Below are positions 358 through 32,000 of a stretch of 32,000 bases of DNA, piece by piece. The stretch is taken from the NCBI RefSeq assembly GCF_000016745.1, contig NC_009483.1:4170001-4202000 (forward strand), read 5' to 3'. Source of the DNA: Geotalea uraniireducens Rf4 (lineage in GTDB: Bacteria > Desulfobacterota > Desulfuromonadia > Geobacterales > Geobacteraceae). Positions within the stretch are counted from its first letter, which is position 1. Each line of letters starts with the position of its first letter. Under the pieces are notes generated by a model that was not told the origin of the DNA, ran no database searches, and saw nothing but the letters and a program-made list of their open reading frames with translations. The position numbers and the translations under genes were made by a program.

Positions 358-379
358 GGGTAACTCCTGAAATTAATTT

Positions 380-436
380 TGAATTATGAATGTTGAATTT
401 TGAATTAAATTCAAAATTAAGAGTTCAAAATTCAAA
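380..436. repeat. Heptamer tandem array (TGAATTN x4) abutting an inverted array (AATTCAA-like x4). The core is an 11-bp dyad, GAATTTTGAAT(T)/AATTCAAAATT.
   Basis: Read directly: tgaatta tgaatgt tgaattt tgaatta | aattcaa aattaag agttcaa aattcaa. It lies in the 86-nt gap between the fixX stop (444) and the etfB start (357). Confidence 0.8.
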
Positions 437-443
437 ATTGCCT

Positions 444-10554: not shown

Positions 10555-12480
10555 TTATTTGTTTACAGTTCCTTTCTTGTGACTGGCCGGCAAAAGCACC
10601 GTAAACTGCGTTCCTTCTCCGGGCCGGCTTTCCACCTGGATCTCGCCGCCATGACGCTTGATGATATTATACGTCAGGGCCAGGCCGAGGCCGATCCCCT
10701 TGCCGACCTCTTTGGTTGTAAAGAAGGGGTCCCAGATCCGGTCGATCTTATCCTGTGCGATACCGCAGCCGGTATCACGGATCCTGACGGAAACCGTCGT
10801 GTCATCCAGGTTCTCCGTCGTCAATTCCACCAGACCGGTCCCTTTGATCGACTGGTGGGCGTTTATCAGCAGGTTCATGCAGACCTGCCGCAATCCGGAC
10901 GGATCACCCAGGACAGAGTGGAGGTCTTTGCTCAGATGGGTAACGACTTCAATCTGTCGATAGATCTGCTGGTGCCGCAACAGCTCAAGAATTTCCAGCA
11001 GGACCACGTTCATATCCACCTCGACAGCAGAACCGTCCGATTTCCTGCTGAAACTGAGCAGGTGGTCGATGATCCCCTTGCAGCGGTAGGACTCCCGGAC
11101 GATTACTTCGAGGTAGTGCGGAAAGACATCCAGCCGGCAATCATCTTTCAAGGCCGGTTCGTCACGGAAACGCCTCAAAAGCCCTTCTGCGTAGCCCGCT
11201 ATCGAGGTGAGAGGGTTGTTGATTTCATGGGCGATTCCGGTGGCAAGCACGCCGATGCCCGACATTTTTTCGGTCTGGATCAGATGCATTTCCTGCAATC
11301 TTTTTTCCGAGATGTCCCTGAAAAAGACGAGTGCCCTGTTTTTCTCTCCCAGTGCGTCTTTGATGGGGGTGGCGGTTATGTCAAAATACAGGGTTTTTTG
11401 CCCTTCCCGTACGGAAACCTGAGACGTCTCCACCCGCTCGCCCCGGAGAGCCCTTTCGACGGGACAAAGTTGCGGCATGGATGGAGTTTCCGGATGAAAG
11501 ATGTCCCGGCAGGATTTCCCTGGAAGTATCTCCTTGGGATATAACTGCGGACTAATGAGATTATGATGCTGGATCAGGCCGTCATGGTCGTAGACCGTGA
11601 TACCGTCGCTGATCGAGTCGAAGATCGCCTGAAGTTCGTTAGTTTTGTTTCTCAGCTCGACTTCGGCCTGTTTCCGCTCAGTGATATCCTGGGTCGTGCC
11701 GTAGAGCCGCACCACCTTGCCGGCACTGTTCACCGACGGCTCGACGATGGAATAGACCCACCGGCAGCTGCCCTCGCCGAACTGCAGGCGGTGTTCGATC
11801 TCATAGCTCTTGCCATGTTCGACACCCAGCCGCAGGTGCCACATGACGTTCTCACGATCTTCGGAATGTACCACGCTGGCAAAGGACTCCTGGGTGGCCT
11901 CGTCGCGGCTGAGATGCATGATGCGCAGCAGTTCGTCGGAGGCCTTCACCTCTGAGGTGGTCGGGTCGAAGCTCCAGGAGCCCACGTGGGTCATGGACTG
12001 GGCCTTGGCCAGGTTGTATTCGCTCTCCGACAGGGCCCGTTCGGCCAGTTTCTTCTCGGTTATGTCCACCAGCACGGCCAGACACTCTTCCCCCGATTCG
12101 GTGACCATGGCCTCAATACGCACAAATAGCGGCTGTTTGTCTCGCTGCGCAAGACCCAGCCGGCAGGTTTCCTTGCCTTGGCTGCAGAAGACCGTGGCGA
12201 GATAATTGACGAATACGAACCACTCATCATCGGCTACGAATTCCCCGAAACGCCTGCCCACCAGATCATTACGTTCGACACCCAAAAGGCGCACACCGGT
12301 CAGGTTGACCGACTGAATAACTCCTTCACGGTCGAAAGTAAAATAACCTACCGGAGCAAAATCGTAAAGCAGGGCGTACTTGTTCCTTGATGCCTCCAGT
12401 TCCTCCTGGAACTTGCGCAATTCCTCGATCTTCGTCTCCAACTCGAGTTGGTGAGCATGATTTTCACGGAATTGTTTCAA
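10555..12480 (-). CDS. Multi-PAS sensor histidine kinase (no receiver domain)
   Basis: 641 aa with an N-terminal coiled coil and repeated PAS-like blocks. The H-box is [18 protein letters not shown]. The HATPase N, G1 and G2 boxes are [17 protein letters not shown] and GKGIGLGL. Confidence 0.9.
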
Positions 12481-12609: not shown

Positions 12610-14016
12610 TCACCAATGGCTGCGCCCGCCAGGGTCGAAACTCGGCTGACTGCCGCCACTTGTACCACGCTTATAGTAGTCCTTGGAATCATAGGTTTCC
12701 GCTGCTTTGGCTTCCTGCAGGCGTTTTTTGTCAATCGGATCTGCCCGGTCGGCATATATGTCTCGCAGCAGGTTTTCGACGACCATGCTCAGATCTTCCA
12801 CCGTTTTTACTACCTCCACCTTGTCGCAATATGCGCCGTAGATATCCATCAGACAGTCGCCGCGACTCCAGGTATCACGATCTTCCGGGGTAAGCCAGAG
12901 CATATAGCGGGCCTTCTCGCGGATCTCGTCCAGCACCCAGTCGTTGGCCTCGTCGTAGTTGTTGCGTGCATCTCCCAGGATGATAAAGGCCGGTCTCCCC
13001 CGCAGGTTTTCCAGATACCTTTTCTTGAAGTTCAGAAACACCTGGCCGAAACTGCTATTTTCATCCAGATCAACGATGTCCCCCTTGTCAATGGTTTCCA
13101 TCAGGTCGTTGACAGGCATGTTTGCCAGCATTTCTGTGATTTCCGCCACTTCCCGATTGAAGATGAAACTGCGGACATCCAGCATCTGATTATGCAGGGT
13201 ATGAAGAAGCAGCAGCATGAAGCGGGAGGCATGGCTCACGGAAAAGCTGACATCACACAGAACCACCAGTCGCGGTTTTTCCCTCCGTTTTCGACGTAAT
13301 GCCACCTGGAACGGCACCATGTCGTGACGGTAATTTTTCTGGATCGTCTTGATGACGTGGAGTTTTCCGCGATTCTGATTATTCTTCATCCGTTTCATAT
13401 CTTTGCGCAGACGCAGCATCATGCGGGAAACCACGTCCTGCATGGCGGCCTGCTCTTCAGGCGTAAAGGTGACGCCCCTGTTGGTGCTGTTGCTCTTGTT
13501 AAGCTCGATCGTGAGCGGATTCTGCGTATAGCGTCGCGACGGCCGGGGCGCTTTCGACTTTCCGCGGTACCCCTTCATCTGGACAACTATTTCAATACCA
13601 TCCGTGTCGTCCGGATCAATCTCTGTCAGGCTTTTCAGCTCGGCTAAATCTTCCGGATTGATATCGCTGTCAAGTTTGAGCAGCGGGCCGTTCTCATCGT
13701 GATCGTCACCCGGCAGTTGGTCGAGGTAGTTGAATTCCCCCTCCATGCCGATGATGGCGGCGTCCATGAGATCGGGAATATCGACGTCCGGGTCGACAGA
13801 CTGGAACCGGCTGAAAAAACGGTTGAAGACCTCATTGAATACCGGAATGTCATTGACATTCTTCACCAGAGTCAGACGCAGGAGCCGCCGGGTCAACCGG
13901 CGCCGTTCCATTCCGGCCAGCGCCAGGGCCTGGACCGCATCCAGGCTTTCACCTGGTGATACGCGGATGCCGCTTTCACGAAGAGCGGCGACGAAACGGG
14001 TGATTATTCGTTCCAT
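12610..14016 (-). CDS. VWA-domain protein of the CoxE type (partner of the MoxR/CoxD ATPase)
   Basis: 468 aa. The N-terminus is RFVAALRESGIRVSPGESLDAVQAL. A MIDAS-like VVLCDVSFSVS is present, along with the C-terminal block AFIILGDARNNY. It starts 2 nt after the MoxR stop. Confidence 0.75.
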   Translation of the reverse strand: MERIITRFVAALRESGIRVSPGESLDAVQALALAGMERRRLTRRLLRLTLVKNVNDIPVFNEVFNRFFSRFQSVDPDVDIPDLMDAAIIGMEGEFNYLDQLPGDDHDENGPLLKLDSDINPEDLAELKSLTEIDPDDTDGIEIVVQMKGYRGKSKAPRPSRRYTQNPLTIELNKSNSTNRGVTFTPEEQAAMQDVVSRMMLRLRKDMKRMKNNQNRGKLHVIKTIQKNYRHDMVPFQVALRRKRREKPRLVVLCDVSFSVSHASRFMLLLLHTLHNQMLDVRSFIFNREVAEITEMLANMPVNDLMETIDKGDIVDLDENSSFGQVFLNFKKRYLENLRGRPAFIILGDARNNYDEANDWVLDEIREKARYMLWLTPEDRDTWSRGDCLMDIYGAYCDKVEVVKTVEDLSMVVENLLRDIYADRADPIDKKRLQEAKAAETYDSKDYYKRGTSGGSQPSFDPGGRSHW

Positions 14017-17940: not shown

Positions 17941-18040
17941 ACGCAACGACGCGACGACGCAACGTTTTAAAACCATGAACCATAATTTTAAAATGCCTTT
18001 CGTCGCGTCGTCGCGTCGTCGCGTCGTCGCGTCGTCGCGT
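17941..18040. repeat. Octamer arrays in inverted orientation: (ACGCAACG, ACGCGACG, ACGCAACG), a 36-nt AT-rich spacer, then (CGTCGCGT)x5
   Basis: Read directly. Five perfect CGTCGCGT units span 18001-18040. Three complementary units span 17941-17964, and the two variant units would give G-U pairs in RNA. The locus lies inside the predicted 5' leader of the rSAM/SPASM gene. Confidence 0.85.
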
Positions 18041-18449: not shown

Positions 18450-18887
18450 CTATGCATCGAGACGGCAGATCAAGGCGCCGACCGAAACGGTCCCGCCTTT
18501 GATGACCCTTGCGAAGATCCCCTCTTTAGGCATGACGCAGTCCCCTGCCTGATAAAAAATAGCGCAGCGGTTGTGACACTCCTTGCCGATCTGTGTTACC
18601 TCGATGACGGCATCGCCCACTGCCAGCCGGGTGCCGATCGGCAGGGCTACGAGGTCGAGACCGCGGGTCGTGATGTTTTCGGCAAAATCGCCGGAATCGA
18701 CATCGAGTCCCAAGGCCCGCATCTTCGCAATGCTCTCCGTAGCGAGCAGGCTCACCTGTCGGTGCCAATCACCCGCATGGGCATCGCCGACTATGCCGTG
18801 GTTTTCCTTCAGTTCTACAGCGTCTACCGGCGTTTTGCGCTGGCCTTTCTCTTTGCTGATACAGACAGCGACAACAGTTGGTGTCAT
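18450..18887 (-). CDS. MOSC-domain protein (molybdenum cofactor sulfurase C-terminal domain family)
   Basis: 145 aa with the pattern VGDAHAG..HRQVSLL...GDFAENITT.G......IGT.L.VG.A..EVTQ.GKEC. It is in moaA context. Confidence 0.75.
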   Translation of the reverse strand: MTPTVVAVCISKEKGQRKTPVDAVELKENHGIVGDAHAGDWHRQVSLLATESIAKMRALGLDVDSGDFAENITTRGLDLVALPIGTRLAVGDAVIEVTQIGKECHNRCAIFYQAGDCVMPKEGIFARVIKGGTVSVGALICRLDA

Positions 18888-18904: not shown

Positions 18905-19015
18905 GTTCGAGGTTCGAGGTTCGAGGTTCGAGGTTCGAGGTTCGAGGTTCGAGGTTCGAGGTTCGAGGTTATTTTTGCTTTTCAACATCGAACCTCGAAC
19001 GTAGAACGTAGAACC
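18905..19015. repeat. Heptamer array (GTTCGAG)x9, perfect over 63 bp, then a 20-nt AT-rich spacer and an inverted degenerate array (ATCGAAC CTCGAAC GTAGAAC GTAGAAC)
   Basis: Read directly. It fills the moaA-MOSC intergenic gap (19027 to 18888). Confidence 0.9.
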
Positions 19016-19027
19016 GGTTTTAGCTGT

Positions 19028-20005
19028 TCATCCGCCGATGGCCGACATGGCAAACGGCGTGTGCTGCTGTTCCGCAGACTCAAGTGAGTGCCTGCCCGGC
19101 TTACGGGCAACGATGTCGTGCAACGCCACCGCAAGCCCCGATTCGTCCCCCGCGGCAAGAAAGGGTTTAAGATCGTATCCGATGTCGGAAAAGAGGCAAC
19201 TCCGCGCCCTGCCGCTTGCTGTAACCCGAATACGGTTGCACTCATCGCAAAAGTGCCCGGAAACCGGGGTAATGACACCAATGGTGCCGGCAGCACCGTC
19301 AATTCTGAAGGTTCTGGCCGGACCGGCCGATGCATCCCGCTCCATTGGCGAGAAACGGAATCGATTGCCGATCCGGTCGAGGATCGTTTCCCCAGGCACA
19401 ATGAGATCTTCCCAGTTGTCAGCCCGGATTGCCGGCATGTACTCGATGAAGCGGACCGTCAGGGGCCGATCGAGCGTCATTGCGGCGAAATCGAGAATCT
19501 CTCCGTCGTTGACGCCGCGCATGACAACCACGTTGATCTTGAGCGGGAATCCTGCCTGTTCCGCAGCAGCAATGCCCGCCATCACCCGATGCAGATCGGC
19601 CCCCCGGGTGATGCCGGCAAAGGTTTCCGGTTGAAGGGAATCGAGGCTGATGTTCAAGCGCTGCACCCCCGCCTGCCGCAGACTTTCAGCCATTTCGGCC
19701 AGATACAGTCCATTTGTCGTGAGAACGAGCTGGCGCAAGCCGGGGATGGCGGCCAACCGCGTAAGAAACGGGACGATCCCCTTGCGCACCAGCGGCTCCC
19801 CCCCAGTGACCCGAATTTTTTCGATACCTGAGGCAACGGCGGTTTTGGCAACGAGCAGGAGTTCCTCATAGCTCAGGATATCGTTGTGGGTGAGCAGAGG
19901 GATGCCGTCTGCCGGCATACAGTAAACACAGCGCATGTTGCAGCGGTCGGTTACTGAAAGCCGCAGGTAATTGATCGTCCTGCCGAAAGTATCTGTCAGC
20001 TCCAT
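19028..20005 (-). CDS. moaA: GTP 3',8-cyclase MoaA (molybdenum cofactor biosynthesis, radical SAM)
   Basis: The track ORF is trimmed to ATG 20005, which has a GAGGTG RBS. The product starts MELTDTFGRTINYLRLSVTDRCNMRCVYCMP and carries the C-terminal motifs CDECNRIRVTASG and the terminal GG. Confidence 0.92.
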   Translation of the reverse strand: MELTDTFGRTINYLRLSVTDRCNMRCVYCMPADGIPLLTHNDILSYEELLLVAKTAVASGIEKIRVTGGEPLVRKGIVPFLTRLAAIPGLRQLVLTTNGLYLAEMAESLRQAGVQRLNISLDSLQPETFAGITRGADLHRVMAGIAAAEQAGFPLKINVVVMRGVNDGEILDFAAMTLDRPLTVRFIEYMPAIRADNWEDLIVPGETILDRIGNRFRFSPMERDASAGPARTFRIDGAAGTIGVITPVSGHFCDECNRIRVTASGRARSCLFSDIGYDLKPFLAAGDESGLAVALHDIVARKPGRHSLESAEQQHTPFAMSAIGG

Positions 20006-29101: not shown

Positions 29102-29680
29102 ATGAAAAACACCAAGATGACACTCTCCACCGAAACGATGAACCTCGACTTCGTTCGCAAGGTGGAGTCCCTCTCCGGCAGTTCGGTACGGCGCTGCTTC
29201 CAGTGCGGCAAGTGCACGGCCGGCTGCCCCATGCGAAGCTTCATGGAACACCCGCCCAACCGGATCATGCGCCTGTTGCAGCTCGGCCAGTGGGAGCGGA
29301 TTCTGGCCGGTCGATCCATCTGGTACTGCGCCTCGTGCGAGACCTGCTCCACCCGCTGCCCCAACAAGGTGGACCTGGCAGCGATCATGGATGCGCTGCG
29401 CAAACTCTCCTGGGACGCCAACGGCCCCTCCAAGGAGAGCTATGTCCAGCTCGCCAACCGGCTCTTCATCGAGAACATAAAAACCTACGGCCGCCAGTAC
29501 GAGATGCGGCTCGGCGCCGTGTTCAACGTCAAGAGCGGGCAGTTCCTGAAGGACCTGCTGCTCGGCCCCAAGCTCCTCTCCCGGGGGAAGCTTAAAATGT
29601 TCCACTCCAAAAACAAGAACATCACCGAGATTGAAAATATCTTCAACCGGATCGAAGAGATGCGGAAAACCGTTTTATGA
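29102..29680 (+). CDS. hdrC: Heterodisulfide reductase subunit C-like 4Fe-4S protein
   Basis: Trimmed to ATG 29102. It carries CFQCGKCTAGCP and CASCETCSTRCP motifs. It is followed by hdrB- and hdrA-type genes. Confidence 0.85.
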   Translation: MKNTKMTLSTETMNLDFVRKVESLSGSSVRRCFQCGKCTAGCPMRSFMEHPPNRIMRLLQLGQWERILAGRSIWYCASCETCSTRCPNKVDLAAIMDALRKLSWDANGPSKESYVQLANRLFIENIKTYGRQYEMRLGAVFNVKSGQFLKDLLLGPKLLSRGKLKMFHSKNKNITEIENIFNRIEEMRKTVL

Positions 29681-29761
29681 GTTTTATGAGTTTTATGAGT
29701 TTTATGAGTTTTATGAGTTTTATGAGTTTTATGAGTTTTATGAGTTTTATGAGTTCGATGA
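29672..29761 (+). repeat. Nonamer tandem array (GTTTTATGA)x9 perfect plus one degenerate unit. The first unit contains the hdrC stop codon.
   Basis: Read directly with a period of 9 nt. Units start at 29672+9k for k=0..8, followed by GTTCGATGA. Confidence 0.9.
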
Positions 29762-29782
29762 GTTATGGTGTTGAACCCATGT

Positions 29783-29944
29783 AACTCAATAAACTCAATA
29801 AACTCAATAAACTCAATAAACTCAATAAACTCAATAAACTCAATAAACTCAATAAACTCAATAAACTCAATAAACTCAATAAACTCAATAAACTCAAAGA
29901 ACTCAAAGAACTCAAAGAACTCTATGAACTCTACAAACTCAAAA
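29783..29944 (+). repeat. Nonamer tandem array of 18 units (162 bp): (AACTCAATA)x12, (AACTCAAAG)x3 and 3 degenerate units
   Basis: Read directly. The reverse complement of the unit (GAGTTTATT in register) matches the first array unit GAGTTTTAT at 7 of 9 positions. The two arrays therefore form an imperfect long inverted repeat. Confidence 0.9.
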
Positions 29945-30811
29945 CTCACCTACTCCTACTATCCCGGCTGCTCACTGCACGCCTCGGGCAAGGAGTACGA
30001 CATATCCACCCGCGGTCTGTTCAAGGCGCTGAAGATCGGTCTCAAGGAAGTGCCGGACTGGCTCTGCTGCGGCGCCACCCCGGCCCACAACGTGGACGAA
30101 CTGTTGTCGCTCTCCCTGTGCGCCAAGAACCTCTCCCTGGCCGACGAAGTCAAGGGGGACCTGGCAGTCGCCTGCGCCGCCTGCTTCTCCAGACTCAAGA
30201 CCACCCAGCACAGACTGGCCGACAACCCGGAGAAGCGCAAGCAGGTGGAGCACGCCATTGCCGGCAGCGTACCGGAGAAGAAGGTCAAGCACCTGCTGGA
30301 GATCCTGGCCAAAGACTACGGCCTGGAGCAACTCCAGGAAGCGGTGCAAAAGCCCCTCTCCGGCCTCAAGGTAGCCTGCTACTACGGCTGCCTCCTCACC
30401 CGGCCCCCAGAAGTGCCGGAACTGGACTGCACCGAAGCCCCGACCATCATGGAGCGGGTCATCGGCGCCACCGGAGCCGAGACCGTCGCCTGGAGCCACC
30501 GGCTCGAGTGCTGCGGCGCCAACTTCACCCTGTCGCGCCCCGGCGTGGTATTGAAGCTTTCGGGCGACATCCTCGCCTCGGCCAAAGCGGCCGGCGCCGA
30601 CTGCCTCATGGTCGCCTGTCCGCTTTGCCACGGCAACCTGGACATCCGCCAGAAGGAGATCGAAGAGGCCACCGGCACCCGTTACAACATGCCGGTCTTC
30701 TACATGACCCAGCTCCTGGCCCTGGCCGTCGGGGTTCCAGCAGCCAAACTCGGCTTCAACAGCATGATGGTCAGTCCCTTGCCGTTATTAAAAGAAAAGA
30801 ACCTACTGTAG
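29924..30811 (+). CDS. hdrB: Heterodisulfide reductase subunit B-like protein (two CCG domains). The alternative start at ATG 29765 would add an (NSI)12(NSK)3 N-terminal tract.
   Basis: The conserved part begins ...KLTYSYYPGCSLHASG, which is normally within about 10 aa of the N-terminus. The CCG motifs are DWLCCGATPAH and LECCGANF. The in-frame ATG at 29924 gives MNSTNSKLTYSYYPGC. Confidence 0.8.
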   Translation: MNSTNSKLTYSYYPGCSLHASGKEYDISTRGLFKALKIGLKEVPDWLCCGATPAHNVDELLSLSLCAKNLSLADEVKGDLAVACAACFSRLKTTQHRLADNPEKRKQVEHAIAGSVPEKKVKHLLEILAKDYGLEQLQEAVQKPLSGLKVACYYGCLLTRPPEVPELDCTEAPTIMERVIGATGAETVAWSHRLECCGANFTLSRPGVVLKLSGDILASAKAAGADCLMVACPLCHGNLDIRQKEIEEATGTRYNMPVFYMTQLLALAVGVPAAKLGFNSMMVSPLPLLKEKNLL

Positions 30812-30948
30812 GGGCGGGGTTTCCCCGCCCTGTTGGAACAATGCGAAAAAAGGACGGACCCCCGCCCTGTTGGAACAATGCGAAAAAAGGACGGACCCCC
30901 GCCCTGCCGGAACAACGATAAATAAGGGCGGGAAGACCCCGCCCCTAC
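30808..30948. mobile_element. MITE/REP-like element of 141 bp. It has 13-bp perfect terminal inverted repeats (GTAGGGGCGGGGT / ACCCCGCCCCTAC) and an internal 37-bp direct repeat (2 perfect copies plus 1 diverged).
   Basis: Read directly. The 37-bp period is shown by CCGCCCTG at 30825, 30862 and 30899. There are several GGGCGGG/CCCGCCC hairpins. The left TIR contains the hdrB TAG stop (30809-30811). Confidence 0.6.
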
Positions 30949-30961
30949 AAGGAATTGATGC

Positions 30962-32000
30962 ATGTCCAGAATCGGCGTATTCGTCTGCCACTGTGGTGAA
31001 AACATATCCAGAACCGTTGACGTGGAACGGGTAGCCCGGGAAGCGGGAGCGCTCTCCGGCGTCGCTTTTGCCACCGACTACAAGTACATGTGCTCCGACC
31101 CGGGGCAAAACCTGCTCAAAAAGGCCGTTGCCGAGCACAATCTCGACGGCATCGTCGTTGCCGCCTGCTCCCCGCGGATGCACGAGAAGACCTTCAGGAA
31201 AGCTGCCCAGAGCGCGGGTCTGAACCCCTTTTTGTGCGAGATGGCCAACATCCGCGAGCACTGCTCCTGGGTCCACGAGGACCGGGAAGAAGCCACGGCC
31301 AAGGCGAGCGAGATCGTCGCCATGCTGGTCGAGCGGGTGAAGAAGGACAAGAAACTTGCACCCATCACCGTCCCGATCACCAAAAGGTCGCTCGTCATCG
31401 GCGGCGGCATCGCCGGCATCCAGGCAGCCCTGGACATCGCCGACGCCGGCCACCAGGTGGTGCTGGTCGAGCGGGAGCCCTCCATCGGCGGCCACATGGC
31501 CCAGCTCTCCGAGACCTTCCCGACCCTGGACTGCTCCCAGTGCATCATGACCCCGAAGATGGTCGACGTGGCCAACCACCCGAACATCACCCTTCATACC
31601 TACAGCGAGATCGAGAACGTCGACGGCTACATCGGCAACTTCCAGATCACCATCAAGAAGAAGGCCCGCAGCGTCGACATGGCCAAGTGCACCGGCTGCG
31701 GGATCTGCATGGCCAAGTGCCCGCAGAAGAAGATCCCCAACGCCTTTGACCGGAATATGGGAATGCGCCCCGCCATCTACGTCCCCTTCCCCCAGGCCGT
31801 CCCCAACACCCCGGTCATCGACCGGGAGAACTGCACCTGGTTCAAGACCGGCAAGTGCGGGGTCTGCCAGAAGGTCTGCGGCCCCGGAGCCGTTGACTAC
31901 ACCCAGGAAGATGAACTCATCGTGGAAAAGGTCGGGGCCATCGTCGTCGCCACCGGCTTCGAGCTCTACGACATCACCGAAAAGCCCAAGGGCTCCCCGA
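30962..32000 (+). CDS. hdrA: Heterodisulfide reductase subunit A-like FAD/Fe-S protein, N-terminal 346 codons; it continues past the window
   Basis: Manual translation gives MSRIGVFVCHCGENISRTVDV. It contains LVIGGGIAGIQAALDIADAGHQVVLVEREPSIGGHM, FPTLDCSQCIMTPKM and the ferredoxin-type motifs CTGCGICMAKCP and CGVCQKVC. An AAGGAA RBS is present. Confidence 0.9.
   Translation, partial: MSRIGVFVCHCGENISRTVDVERVAREAGALSGVAFATDYKYMCSDPGQNLLKKAVAEHNLDGIVVAACSPRMHEKTFRKAAQSAGLNPFLCEMANIREHCSWVHEDREEATAKASEIVAMLVERVKKDKKLAPITVPITKRSLVIGGGIAGIQAALDIADAGHQVVLVEREPSIGGHMAQLSETFPTLDCSQCIMTPKMVDVANHPNITLHTYSEIENVDGYIGNFQITIKKKARSVDMAKCTGCGICMAKCPQKKIPNAFDRNMGMRPAIYVPFPQAVPNTPVIDRENCTWFKTGKCGVCQKVCGPGAVDYTQEDELIVEKVGAIVVATGFELYDITEKPKGSP

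Follow-up and report, generated by a model that had tools for sequence, protein, structure and literature searches.

Paired nonamer arrays between hdrC and hdrB of Geotalea uraniireducens Rf4 belong to a dispersed family of palindromic intergenic elements

Paired arrays between hdrC and hdrB

Inverted pairs of short tandem arrays have been noted in Geobacter (2009, 2010) and in Xanthomonas (2015), and none of them is experimentally characterised. In Geobacter metallireducens, tandem octa-, hepta- and nonanucleotide repeats are paired on opposite strands and form classes 1-4, with sets of 24, 21 and 8 pairs and one pair located between proB and proA; they were guessed to bind global regulators similar to IHF or HU (Aklujkar 2009, PMC2700814). 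In Geobacter bemidjiensis, multicopy sequences make up 12% of the intergenic regions (Aklujkar 2010, PMC2996986). Xanthomonas genomes harbour arrays of the heptamer GGGAATC, which occur as 70-75 convergent pairs on the plus and minus strands and are capable of forming stem-loops or cruciforms (Rehm et al., 2015). Here we describe two 9-nt arrays which separate hdrC and hdrB in a 32,000-nt stretch of the Geotalea uraniireducens Rf4 genome (NC_009483.1, positions 4,170,001 to 4,202,000 of the forward strand), hereafter the window, to which all coordinates refer. The two arrays are one copy of a dispersed family of palindromic intergenic nonamer arrays.

The copy is intercistronic, with the stop codon of hdrC in its first unit and a start codon of hdrB without a Shine-Dalgarno (SD) sequence in its distal units, and the homogeneous expansion of one unit variant in each arm is recent. 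We consider it probable, at roughly 0.6, that the arrays are a non-coding, dispersed palindromic nonamer element of the hdrCBA operon, which is tolerated there, leaves hdrB with its SD-less start and has a modest effect. Confidence was judged separately for each of the readings discussed below, which partly overlap and need not sum to 1. The presence of hdrA downstream of hdrB places the arrays inside an hdrC-hdrB-hdrA operon, with the following features.

29102-29680, plus strand: hdrC, 192 aa, 4Fe-4S dicluster subunit (Pfam Fer4_8/Fer4_17; termini compared with relatives)
29672-29764, plus strand: left arm, GTTTTATGA in nine perfect copies (29672-29752), then two degenerate units, GTTCGATGA and GTTATGGTG
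29765-29782, plus strand: apical spacer or loop of 18 nt, ATGGTGTTGAACCCATGT, holding the upstream in-frame ATG at 29765
29783-29890, plus strand: canonical part of the right arm, AACTCAATA in twelve perfect copies
29891-29944, plus strand: distal part of the right arm, AACTCAAAG in three copies (29891-29917), then AACTCTATG, AACTCTACA and AACTCAAAA
29924-30811, plus strand: hdrB, 295 aa, two CCG domains (Pfam), counted from ATG 29924
30962-32000, plus strand: hdrA, 5′ part, MSRIGVFVCHCG...

Tandem Repeats Finder (TRF) reported the left array at 29672-29764 (period 9, 10.3 copies, 97% matches, score 172) and the right array at 29783-29942 (period 9, 17.8 copies, 95% matches, score 250). Together with a unit-by-unit reading, this reproduced to the base the array structure described in the original prediction, which had been made from the letters of the window. 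The last two codons and the stop of hdrC (GTT TTA TGA, with the TGA at 29678-29680) come from unit 1, so the first array does begin within the end of hdrC, as had been proposed. The distal right arm (29891-29944) holds the likely start of hdrB, and ATG 29924 is located within a TATGAACTC unit. Read in the GAGTT register, the left-arm unit is GAGTTTTAT; the canonical right-arm unit is AATAAACTC, which is the reverse complement of GAGTTTATT. Recalculation in the best rotation (reverse complement of the array-2 unit against the array-1 unit) returned the same complementarity as before, 7 of 9 positions per unit. The pattern of three GAGTT(N4) units followed by three AACTC(N4) units matches at 29733-29814, and it did not occur in 100 dinucleotide-preserving shuffles of the window. 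Rfam contained no family matching the window at gathering thresholds. The promoter and terminator scan found nothing within the arrays; its sole terminator-like sites were on the minus strand, in a block similar to repetitive extragenic palindromic (REP) sequences after hdrB.

Similar to the paired repeats of G. metallireducens, which belongs to the same bacterial family, the arrays of the window are intergenic and lie within an operon, as does the proB-proA pair. The published repeats likewise consist of three to five tandem units of 7-9 nt with their complement on the other strand at a variable distance, and units resembling classes 1 and 2 (GAGCAACG, CACGGAGA) were recovered in the relatives surveyed here. 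However, the GAGTT nonamer of the window (GAGTTTTAT / AATAAACTC) differs from the published units GTTGCTYN, TCTCCGTS[Y], MTYCTGA and CCYTC, and the window has far more units (10 + 18) and embedded stop and start codons. Judged by its units, the family is distinct from the published Geobacter classes, though it is the same kind of element. The Xanthomonas heptamers also share several properties with it, being intergenic, mostly between co-directional genes, near the upstream open reading frame (ORF), and conserved in position with variable length. Nonetheless, they are G-rich, have been discussed as G-quadruplex formers and have a period of 7 instead of 9, and they have not been reported to be tied to stop or start codons, or to downstream genes lacking an SD.

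The nonamer family and the hdrC-hdrB junction in relatives

Metagenomes were scanned for GAGTT(N4)GAGTT(N4)GAGTT, followed after 4-34 nt by AACTC(N4)AACTC(N4)AACTC, and the family is thus defined by a pattern of this study. At least 120 metagenome loci match (L083-L202), on contigs with a GC content of 0.35-0.66, most of which have no assigned taxonomy. The family statistics given here and below refer to the 118 non-redundant elements among the matches listed. The variable positions of the units follow Y-R-T-W, the most frequent units are GAGTTTATT, GAGTTCATA, GAGTTCGTT and GAGTTCGTA, and a minor subfamily has units similar to GAGTTGACC. The commonest unit, GAGTTTATT, is the reverse complement of the array-2 unit of the window, and the units of the right arm of the window (AATAAACTC, TATGAACTC, TACAAACTC and AAAGAACTC) are all frequent in the family. 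The left-arm variant GAGTTTTAT was found in none of the 118 members, and is so a derived, amplified variant. The median number of units per family arm is 5 and the largest is 9, and the two arms differ by -1 to +1 units in 59 of 70 cases. With 10 + 18 units, the window falls outside this norm of about 5 units and near-equal arms, and its copy is an over-expanded, lopsided outlier.

The position of the family relative to genes is similar to that of the window copy. Among 82 elements with two called neighbours, 70 are flanked by co-directional, 8 by convergent and 4 by divergent genes. In the co-directional cases, the upstream stop codon lies at -7 to 0 from the first unit in 46 of 65. This stop is a TAG in 34 of the 65, including 15 in which it is the TAG of TAGTT. 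A further 7 use the TGA or TAA of TGAGTT in register -1, which is the register of the hdrC TGA in the window. The stop codon of the upstream gene appears to come from the element itself. Downstream starts are located 0-10 nt past the last unit and usually lack an SD; the SDs of these genes are weaker than those of other genes on the same contigs (median +0.2 vs -3.6 kcal/mol, p = 5.6e-9). The window copy fits the family, with the hdrC stop in unit 1 and the SD-less hdrB start in the distal units.

Filled and empty sites were found in hdrCBA operons of other phyla. Contig L181 (500-1950, GC 0.42) carries a Planctomycetia/Omnitrophota-like hdrCBA operon in which the hdrC-hdrB junction and the hdrB-hdrA junction each hold a nonamer element. 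Its HdrB shares 50% identity with that of the window, 83% with that of a Planctomycetia metagenome-assembled genome (MAG; L047) and 77% with those of Omnitrophota MAGs. The relatives of L181 (L047-L060) have empty ATGA overlaps at both junctions. In L181 an element takes the place of each ATGA overlap, its first three bases forming the new stop and its last unit abutting the ATG. Several contigs hold two copies, and the pair of L117 has homologous loops in opposite orientation. The filled sites of L181, the paired copies of L117 and the stop/start codon architecture therefore argue for dispersal of the element and against a local de novo origin.

Further members of the family were observed in other contexts. 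One element is located directly upstream of rpsC (MGQKVNPIG) at about 5281-5344 of L176, and another directly upstream of rplF (MSRIGKKPI) at 2243-2308 of L095 (= L179), both in ribosomal-protein operons, and very highly expressed operons therefore tolerate elements of this kind. Matches to the nonamer pattern also include seven viral contigs. The IMG/VR contig L205, classified as viral, carries three nonamer elements within 12 kb (553-627, 1248-1325 and 10765-10840). In L132 and L161 the element directly abuts the apparent end of a tRNA gene (..CCCAGCTGAGCTACATCC..), which is a context without a protein gene. A BLAST search of plasmids with the family consensus returned one insignificant hit only, and a probe with the exact 21-nt loop found nothing in the metagenomes. 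In the open-access literature, no paper on the nonamer family or its stop/start architecture was found. Literature searches by unit sequence returned bisulfite-PCR primers only, and searches for nonamers or short tandemly repeated repetitive (STRR) sequences returned nothing specific.

The closest relatives by the HdrB core are Geobacteraceae, with identities up to 84%, and the hdrC-hdrB junction was read in 46 of them (L001-L046). This comparison of spacing, which the original prediction had named as a check, divides the relatives between a stop/start overlap and arrays. About half have no spacer, and their hdrC stop overlaps the GTG start of hdrB by 4 nt (GTGA). These overlap-type relatives possess a strong SD within the 3′ end of hdrC, with a duplex of -11.1 kcal/mol in L010. 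Most of the remaining relatives have, precisely at the junction, either two short tandem arrays in inverted orientation or a hairpin, with quite different units, as listed here.

L001: junction unit CGTTCAC
L003: junction unit TATGAAT
L012 and L046: junction unit GATCGGACC
L023 and L045: junction unit GGATGAA
L014, L022, L026 and L038: junction unit AATTTTG, of which the left arm of L024 is a degenerate variant

In L004, L005 and L009 a single tandem array of the GGGAC/GGGTC type is present, for which the paired arm was not identified. At 3080-3230 of L038, two AATTTTG-type hairpins follow each other in the hdrC-hdrB spacer, a tandem duplication of the whole element.

An orthologous nonamer pair (GAGTTnnTA/AACTC), homologous to the element of the window, was found in L002. 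The window HdrC ends in ..EEMRKTVL* and lacks the ..KKGEAL/P* terminus conserved in relatives; among the relatives compared, this terminus is missing only in the window and L002. Given this common truncation, both go back to a single insertion, in which hdrC lost its SD-bearing end. The junction comparison thus indicates that the element replaced an ancestral 4-nt stop/start overlap together with the strong SD of the hdrC 3′ end.

By analogy, the element would act most like the transcribed palindromes of the REP/BIME/REPIN type (bacterial interspersed mosaic elements and REP doublets forming hairpins) or of MITEs (miniature transposable elements with inverted repeats), yet it is not a canonical REP. 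Similar to REP/BIME/REPIN sequences (Di Nocera 2013, PMC3733652), it belongs to dispersed, transcribed palindromes which form RNA hairpins and inverted dimers, mostly follow coding regions, are flanked by co-directional or convergent genes and are rare in promoter spacers. In contrast to REPs, the arms of the window are tandem arrays of variable copy number instead of a single palindrome of 20-40 nt, the arrays have no GTAG/CGTC tag, and the family extends across distant phyla. The string cGTAGAGTT is present in some of its units, yet the borders are mostly (A/T)TAGTT. Within the 32 kb of the window, no REP-associated tyrosine transposase (RAYT) was seen and one copy of the nonamer element is present. 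A canonical REP-like, GTAG-tagged pair occupies the next spacer of the operon (30808-30950). As for MITEs, inverted arms and filled versus empty orthologous junctions were observed, and no consistent target-site duplication was defined.

Predicted pairing and the readings of function

The sense RNA of 29650-29975 has a predicted minimum free energy (MFE) of -93.8 kcal/mol, compared with -47.2 +/- 4.7 for shuffled sequences (z = -9.95). The MFE fold is a ladder of 7-bp helices with 2x2 internal loops between them, in which the first approximately ten units of the right arm pair with the left arm. For the distal right arm, the prediction gives less pairing than for the stem, with a mean probability of being unpaired of 0.39-0.99 per 9-nt bin.

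Covariation was analysed in seven orthologous junction elements of Geobacteraceae (L014, L022, L024, L026, L045, L023 and L003), which have flanks in common while their units drift from AATTTTG to AAGGATG. RNAalifold predicted a helix of 18 pairs, with 89% of the cells paired. Fourteen double-change cells were counted against 7.5 +/- 1.8 in shuffles, none of the 500 shuffles reached 14, and every slid control scored far lower. The 4-fold-site identity of hdrB among these species is 0.44-0.64, meaning that about half of the sites differ. Because the arms co-vary despite this divergence, the alignments argue that arm pairing, and to some degree also sequence, is maintained in the orthologous junction elements. 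The original prediction had proposed that a very long interrupted hairpin is possible and that the locus might be a structured intercistronic regulator. The fold bears out the hairpin, and the hairpin, the class membership and the arm covariation support the structure and location of the proposed element; its regulatory role is putative, and it may be a tolerated, dispersed repeat.

In the favoured reading, the element would be co-transcribed and fold as a long imperfect hairpin, looping out most of the 245-nt spacer, and ribosomes which end on hdrC would be released near the start of hdrB. HdrB could then be synthesised by ribosomes delivered through hdrC translation, by termination-reinitiation or 70S scanning, and/or by initiation at the unstructured A-rich distal units instead of an SD. 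The perfect runs of 9 and 12 units would be slippage expansions, with a length that is probably variable and an unstable unit number. As a tolerated REP- or MITE-like repeat, the element would alter hdrB translation or mRNA stability modestly at most, and would not be a dedicated regulator. Hairpin-bridged ribosome-binding sites are known from genes 38 and 25 of phage T4, where a stable hairpin similarly shortens the distance between signals and where the downstream cistron has no strong SD of its own. However, these are single short hairpins in specific genes and not a dispersed family, and the hdrC-hdrB coupling is deduced. A scanning model of termination-reinitiation coupling reportedly goes back to Adhin and van Duin.

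Several observations weigh against the favoured reading. The unequal arms (10 vs 18 units) leave about 50 nt between the base of the hairpin and ATG 29924, and so spatial coupling would be weaker than in typical members. No transposase domain was detected in the 29 ORFs of the window that were scanned, no consistent target-site duplication could be defined at the element borders, and we infer mobility from the distribution of the copies only. L012 and L046 share a closely similar element despite an hdrB 4-fold-site identity of just 0.53. Junction elements are thus kept beyond synonymous-site divergence, and therefore some constraint acts on them, which is not expected of a purely neutral repeat. 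The sense strand shows no excess of G.U over A.C pairs, neither in Geobacteraceae (42 vs 29, p = 0.15) nor in the metagenomic family, where the counts among the matches listed (93 G.U vs 131 A.C) are the reverse of the expected direction. The upkeep of pairing is therefore not attributable to selection on the mRNA over processes at the DNA level, and may come from such processes, like cruciforms, hairpins of single-stranded DNA or template switching between the arms. Comparison of sense and antisense MFE gave no support for selection at the RNA level either.

A bolder form of this reading, which we put forward tentatively, is that of an undescribed mobile "intercistronic cassette" shared across phyla. 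It would insert precisely at overlapping stop/start junctions, bring its own stop codon and allow SD-independent initiation or re-initiation by looping out its hairpin, and the runaway-expanded copy of the window would control HdrB. If true, the element would be selfish and constructed so as to be transparent to translation. The locus opens onto a large, essentially uncharacterised class, the inverted pairs of tandem 7-9-nt arrays in intercistronic spacers. The nonamer family was found in distant phyla, and in hdrCBA operons it took the place of coupling by a 4-nt overlap on two or more occasions. Should the hairpin keep coupling intact, this would explain the harmless invasion of highly expressed, stoichiometric operons, including those of ribosomal proteins, and would offer a natural system for structure-bridged re-initiation. 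The locus itself is probably a tolerated repeat, while the family it reveals is apparently compatible with translational coupling.

An adaptive RNA regulator seems unlikely to us. The hairpin would then be under selection for adjusting the ratio of HdrC to HdrB or the half-life of the transcript, with unit number tuning its strength, and would work like REP/BIME sequences, like the 3′ stem-loops of operons whose RNA is selectively processed and stabilised (SRPS), or as a processing site for RNase III/E. The very stable predicted hairpin, the strictly intercistronic position and the co-varying arms of elements kept beyond 4-fold-site divergence are all consistent with it. Intercistronic stem-loops that govern the stoichiometry of complexes have been documented (PMC4423207). 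However, the junction units are wholly different between lineages, the sense strand has no G.U excess, and the two arms expanded different, non-complementary variants, which looks like slippage and not like tuning. Moreover, HdrABC is a stoichiometric complex, and about half of the relatives manage with the 4-nt overlap and no element.

The arrays could alternatively work at the DNA level, as sites bound by a nucleoid-associated or "global regulator" protein similar to IHF or HU, or sites of a transposase or recombinase, which we regard as improbable. This agrees with the hypothesis published for the matching architecture of G. metallireducens (PMC2700814). The symmetric G.U/A.C pattern would suit a strand-neutral constraint, and units made of a conserved 5-nt core plus 4 variable nt look like iterated binding sites. 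Nevertheless, periods of 7, 8 and 9 and many unrelated units per genome would require many proteins, divergent (promoter) spacers are avoided (4 of the 82 elements above), and the ends of the elements are tied to stop and start codons, which points to the level of mRNA or translation. Two known kinds of site were also considered and rejected. The units are by eye unlike the IHF consensus WATCAANNNNTTR, for which no search was run. Integron attC sites were set aside by reasoning only, as GTT lies on the left and AAC on the right, which is the wrong orientation of the core, and the elements occur in hdr and ribosomal-protein operons.

A contingency switch, in which slippage of the unit number would shift the hairpin register and the accessibility of the hdrB start between heritable ON and low states, is very improbable. 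The perfect runs of 9 and 12 units are expected to be prone to slippage, and the start codon lies in distal units whose pairing depends on the surplus units of the right arm. On the other hand, no length polymorphism was seen; the exact HdrC protein is encoded on two other assemblies, as short Logan contigs of the same strain, and these end in the arrays or collapse them. The 2 units of L082 are attributed to assembly collapse of a perfect repeat. The locus is also unlike a classic contingency locus, since its period of 9 leaves all frames intact, and the arrays hold no promoter-like site and are placed between the stop codon of one gene and the start codon of the next. Hdr is a core enzyme of energy metabolism and thus an unlikely target of phase variation, and typical family units, among the matches listed, are heterogeneous and poor substrates for slippage.

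The position of the HdrB start bears on the last of the readings, and a further small ORF has to be considered with it.

29677-29784, plus strand: 35-codon ORF encoding (MSF)8MSSMSYGVEPM*, its ATG overlapping the hdrC stop (ATGA)

As described in the original prediction, a frame of 348 aa is open from ATG 29765 (MVLNPC(NSI)12(NSK)3NSMNSTNSKLTYSYYPGC...), an in-frame ATG is present at 29924, and changes of unit number keep the frame owing to the period of 9. In every one of the 46 relatives, HdrB starts 4-8 codons ahead of the conserved L-x-Y-S/A-Y-Y-P-G-C, and ATG 29924 is in the equivalent place. No N-terminal extension of HdrB was found in L001-L046 or in L181. The right arm of L002 stands in another frame relative to hdrB (GAA CTC..), with no in-frame start between the loop TAA and the ATG. 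ATG 29765 is paired in the predicted stem, with a probability of being unpaired of 0.06, and its SD duplex of -2.2 kcal/mol counts as no SD. For ATG 29924 the probability of being unpaired is 0.34 for the start codon and 0.52 for the region, and the duplex of -1.1 kcal/mol likewise amounts to no SD. The TAA of the 35-codon ORF ends at the first base of array 2, 17 nt past ATG 29765. It is possibly a relay ORF, and translating it would open the left arm. L002 does not conserve this ORF and has, by eye, MSS* as its counterpart.

A start of HdrB at ATG 29765, giving it a low-complexity N-terminal extension (NSI)12(NSK)3 of variable length, as had been suggested as one option, is very improbable: the frame is open to the HdrB core at any copy number, neither start has an SD and the 35-codon ORF could bring terminating ribosomes to less than 20 nt from ATG 29765, but two of the three unit frames are open anyway, so that an open frame is unsurprising, the element of L002 is in a different frame without an upstream start, no relative is extended, family genes begin after the last unit, ATG 29765 is paired, and the sister elements repeat every 7 or 8 nt, periods that cannot preserve a frame. 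The 9-nt period very likely accounts, as an artefact, for the 348-aa ORF and its (NSI)n tract. For annotation, the start of hdrB should be moved to 29924 and the arrays should be recorded as a repeat element.

Other spacers of the window and inverted pairs elsewhere

The second spacer of the operon, between hdrB and hdrA, is occupied by a different repeat.

30808-30950, plus strand: palindromic repeat block with 2.5 copies of a 37-bp unit

This block is bounded by GTAGGGGCGGGG...CCCCGCCCCTAC, an inverted pair of GTAG-tagged REP-like hairpins, and the stop codon of hdrB (TAG) sits within its first GTAG.

Three sister elements, also inverted pairs of short arrays, were found elsewhere in the window.

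375-439, minus strand: (AATTTTG)x4.6 / (AAATTCA)x4.7, 7 of 7 positions complementary, period 7
17941-18040, minus strand: ACGCAACG in three copies / TCGTCGCG in five copies, 7 of 8 positions complementary, period 8
18905-19015, minus strand: (GTTCGAG)x9.4 / (GAACCTA)x3.7, 6 of 7 positions complementary, period 7

All three fold as hairpins on the sense strand of their flanking genes, and two of the three fill spacers within operons (ferredoxin/ETF-beta and moaA/MOSC). The first fills the gap that separates a ferredoxin gene at 444-722 from an ETF-beta gene starting at 357, and its unit recurs at the hdrC-hdrB junction of L014, L022, L026 and L038. The second is located 45 nt upstream of a radical-SAM gene and has a predicted hairpin of -72.5 kcal/mol. 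The third lies between moaA, which ends at 19028, and a MOSC gene, which starts at 18887.

A stringent TRF-based screen of 752 kb of Geobacteraceae loci detected 38 inverted and 4 direct array pairs. Gene contexts in this study are ORF-based calls, with gaps filled by the longest ORFs in this screen. Among the inverted pairs, 35 of 38 lie between co-directional genes, the upstream gene typically ending 1-17 nt before the element and the downstream gene starting 13-30 nt after it. In L010 (Geotalea toluenoxydans), five alternating 8-nt arrays (CCTTAGTG / CACGAAGG / ...) are spaced 53-68 nt apart at 13060-13416, an arrangement similar to BIMEs. Inverted pairs of 7-8-nt arrays were also observed in Armatimonadota, Vulcanimicrobiota and one unclassified bacterium. 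The non-Geobacter pairs are located as follows.

L058: 8555-8632
L064: 4661-6281 and 13409-13482
L071: 6680-17298

With pairs present in these genomes, the inverted arrays are therefore a general phenomenon which is not confined to one family.

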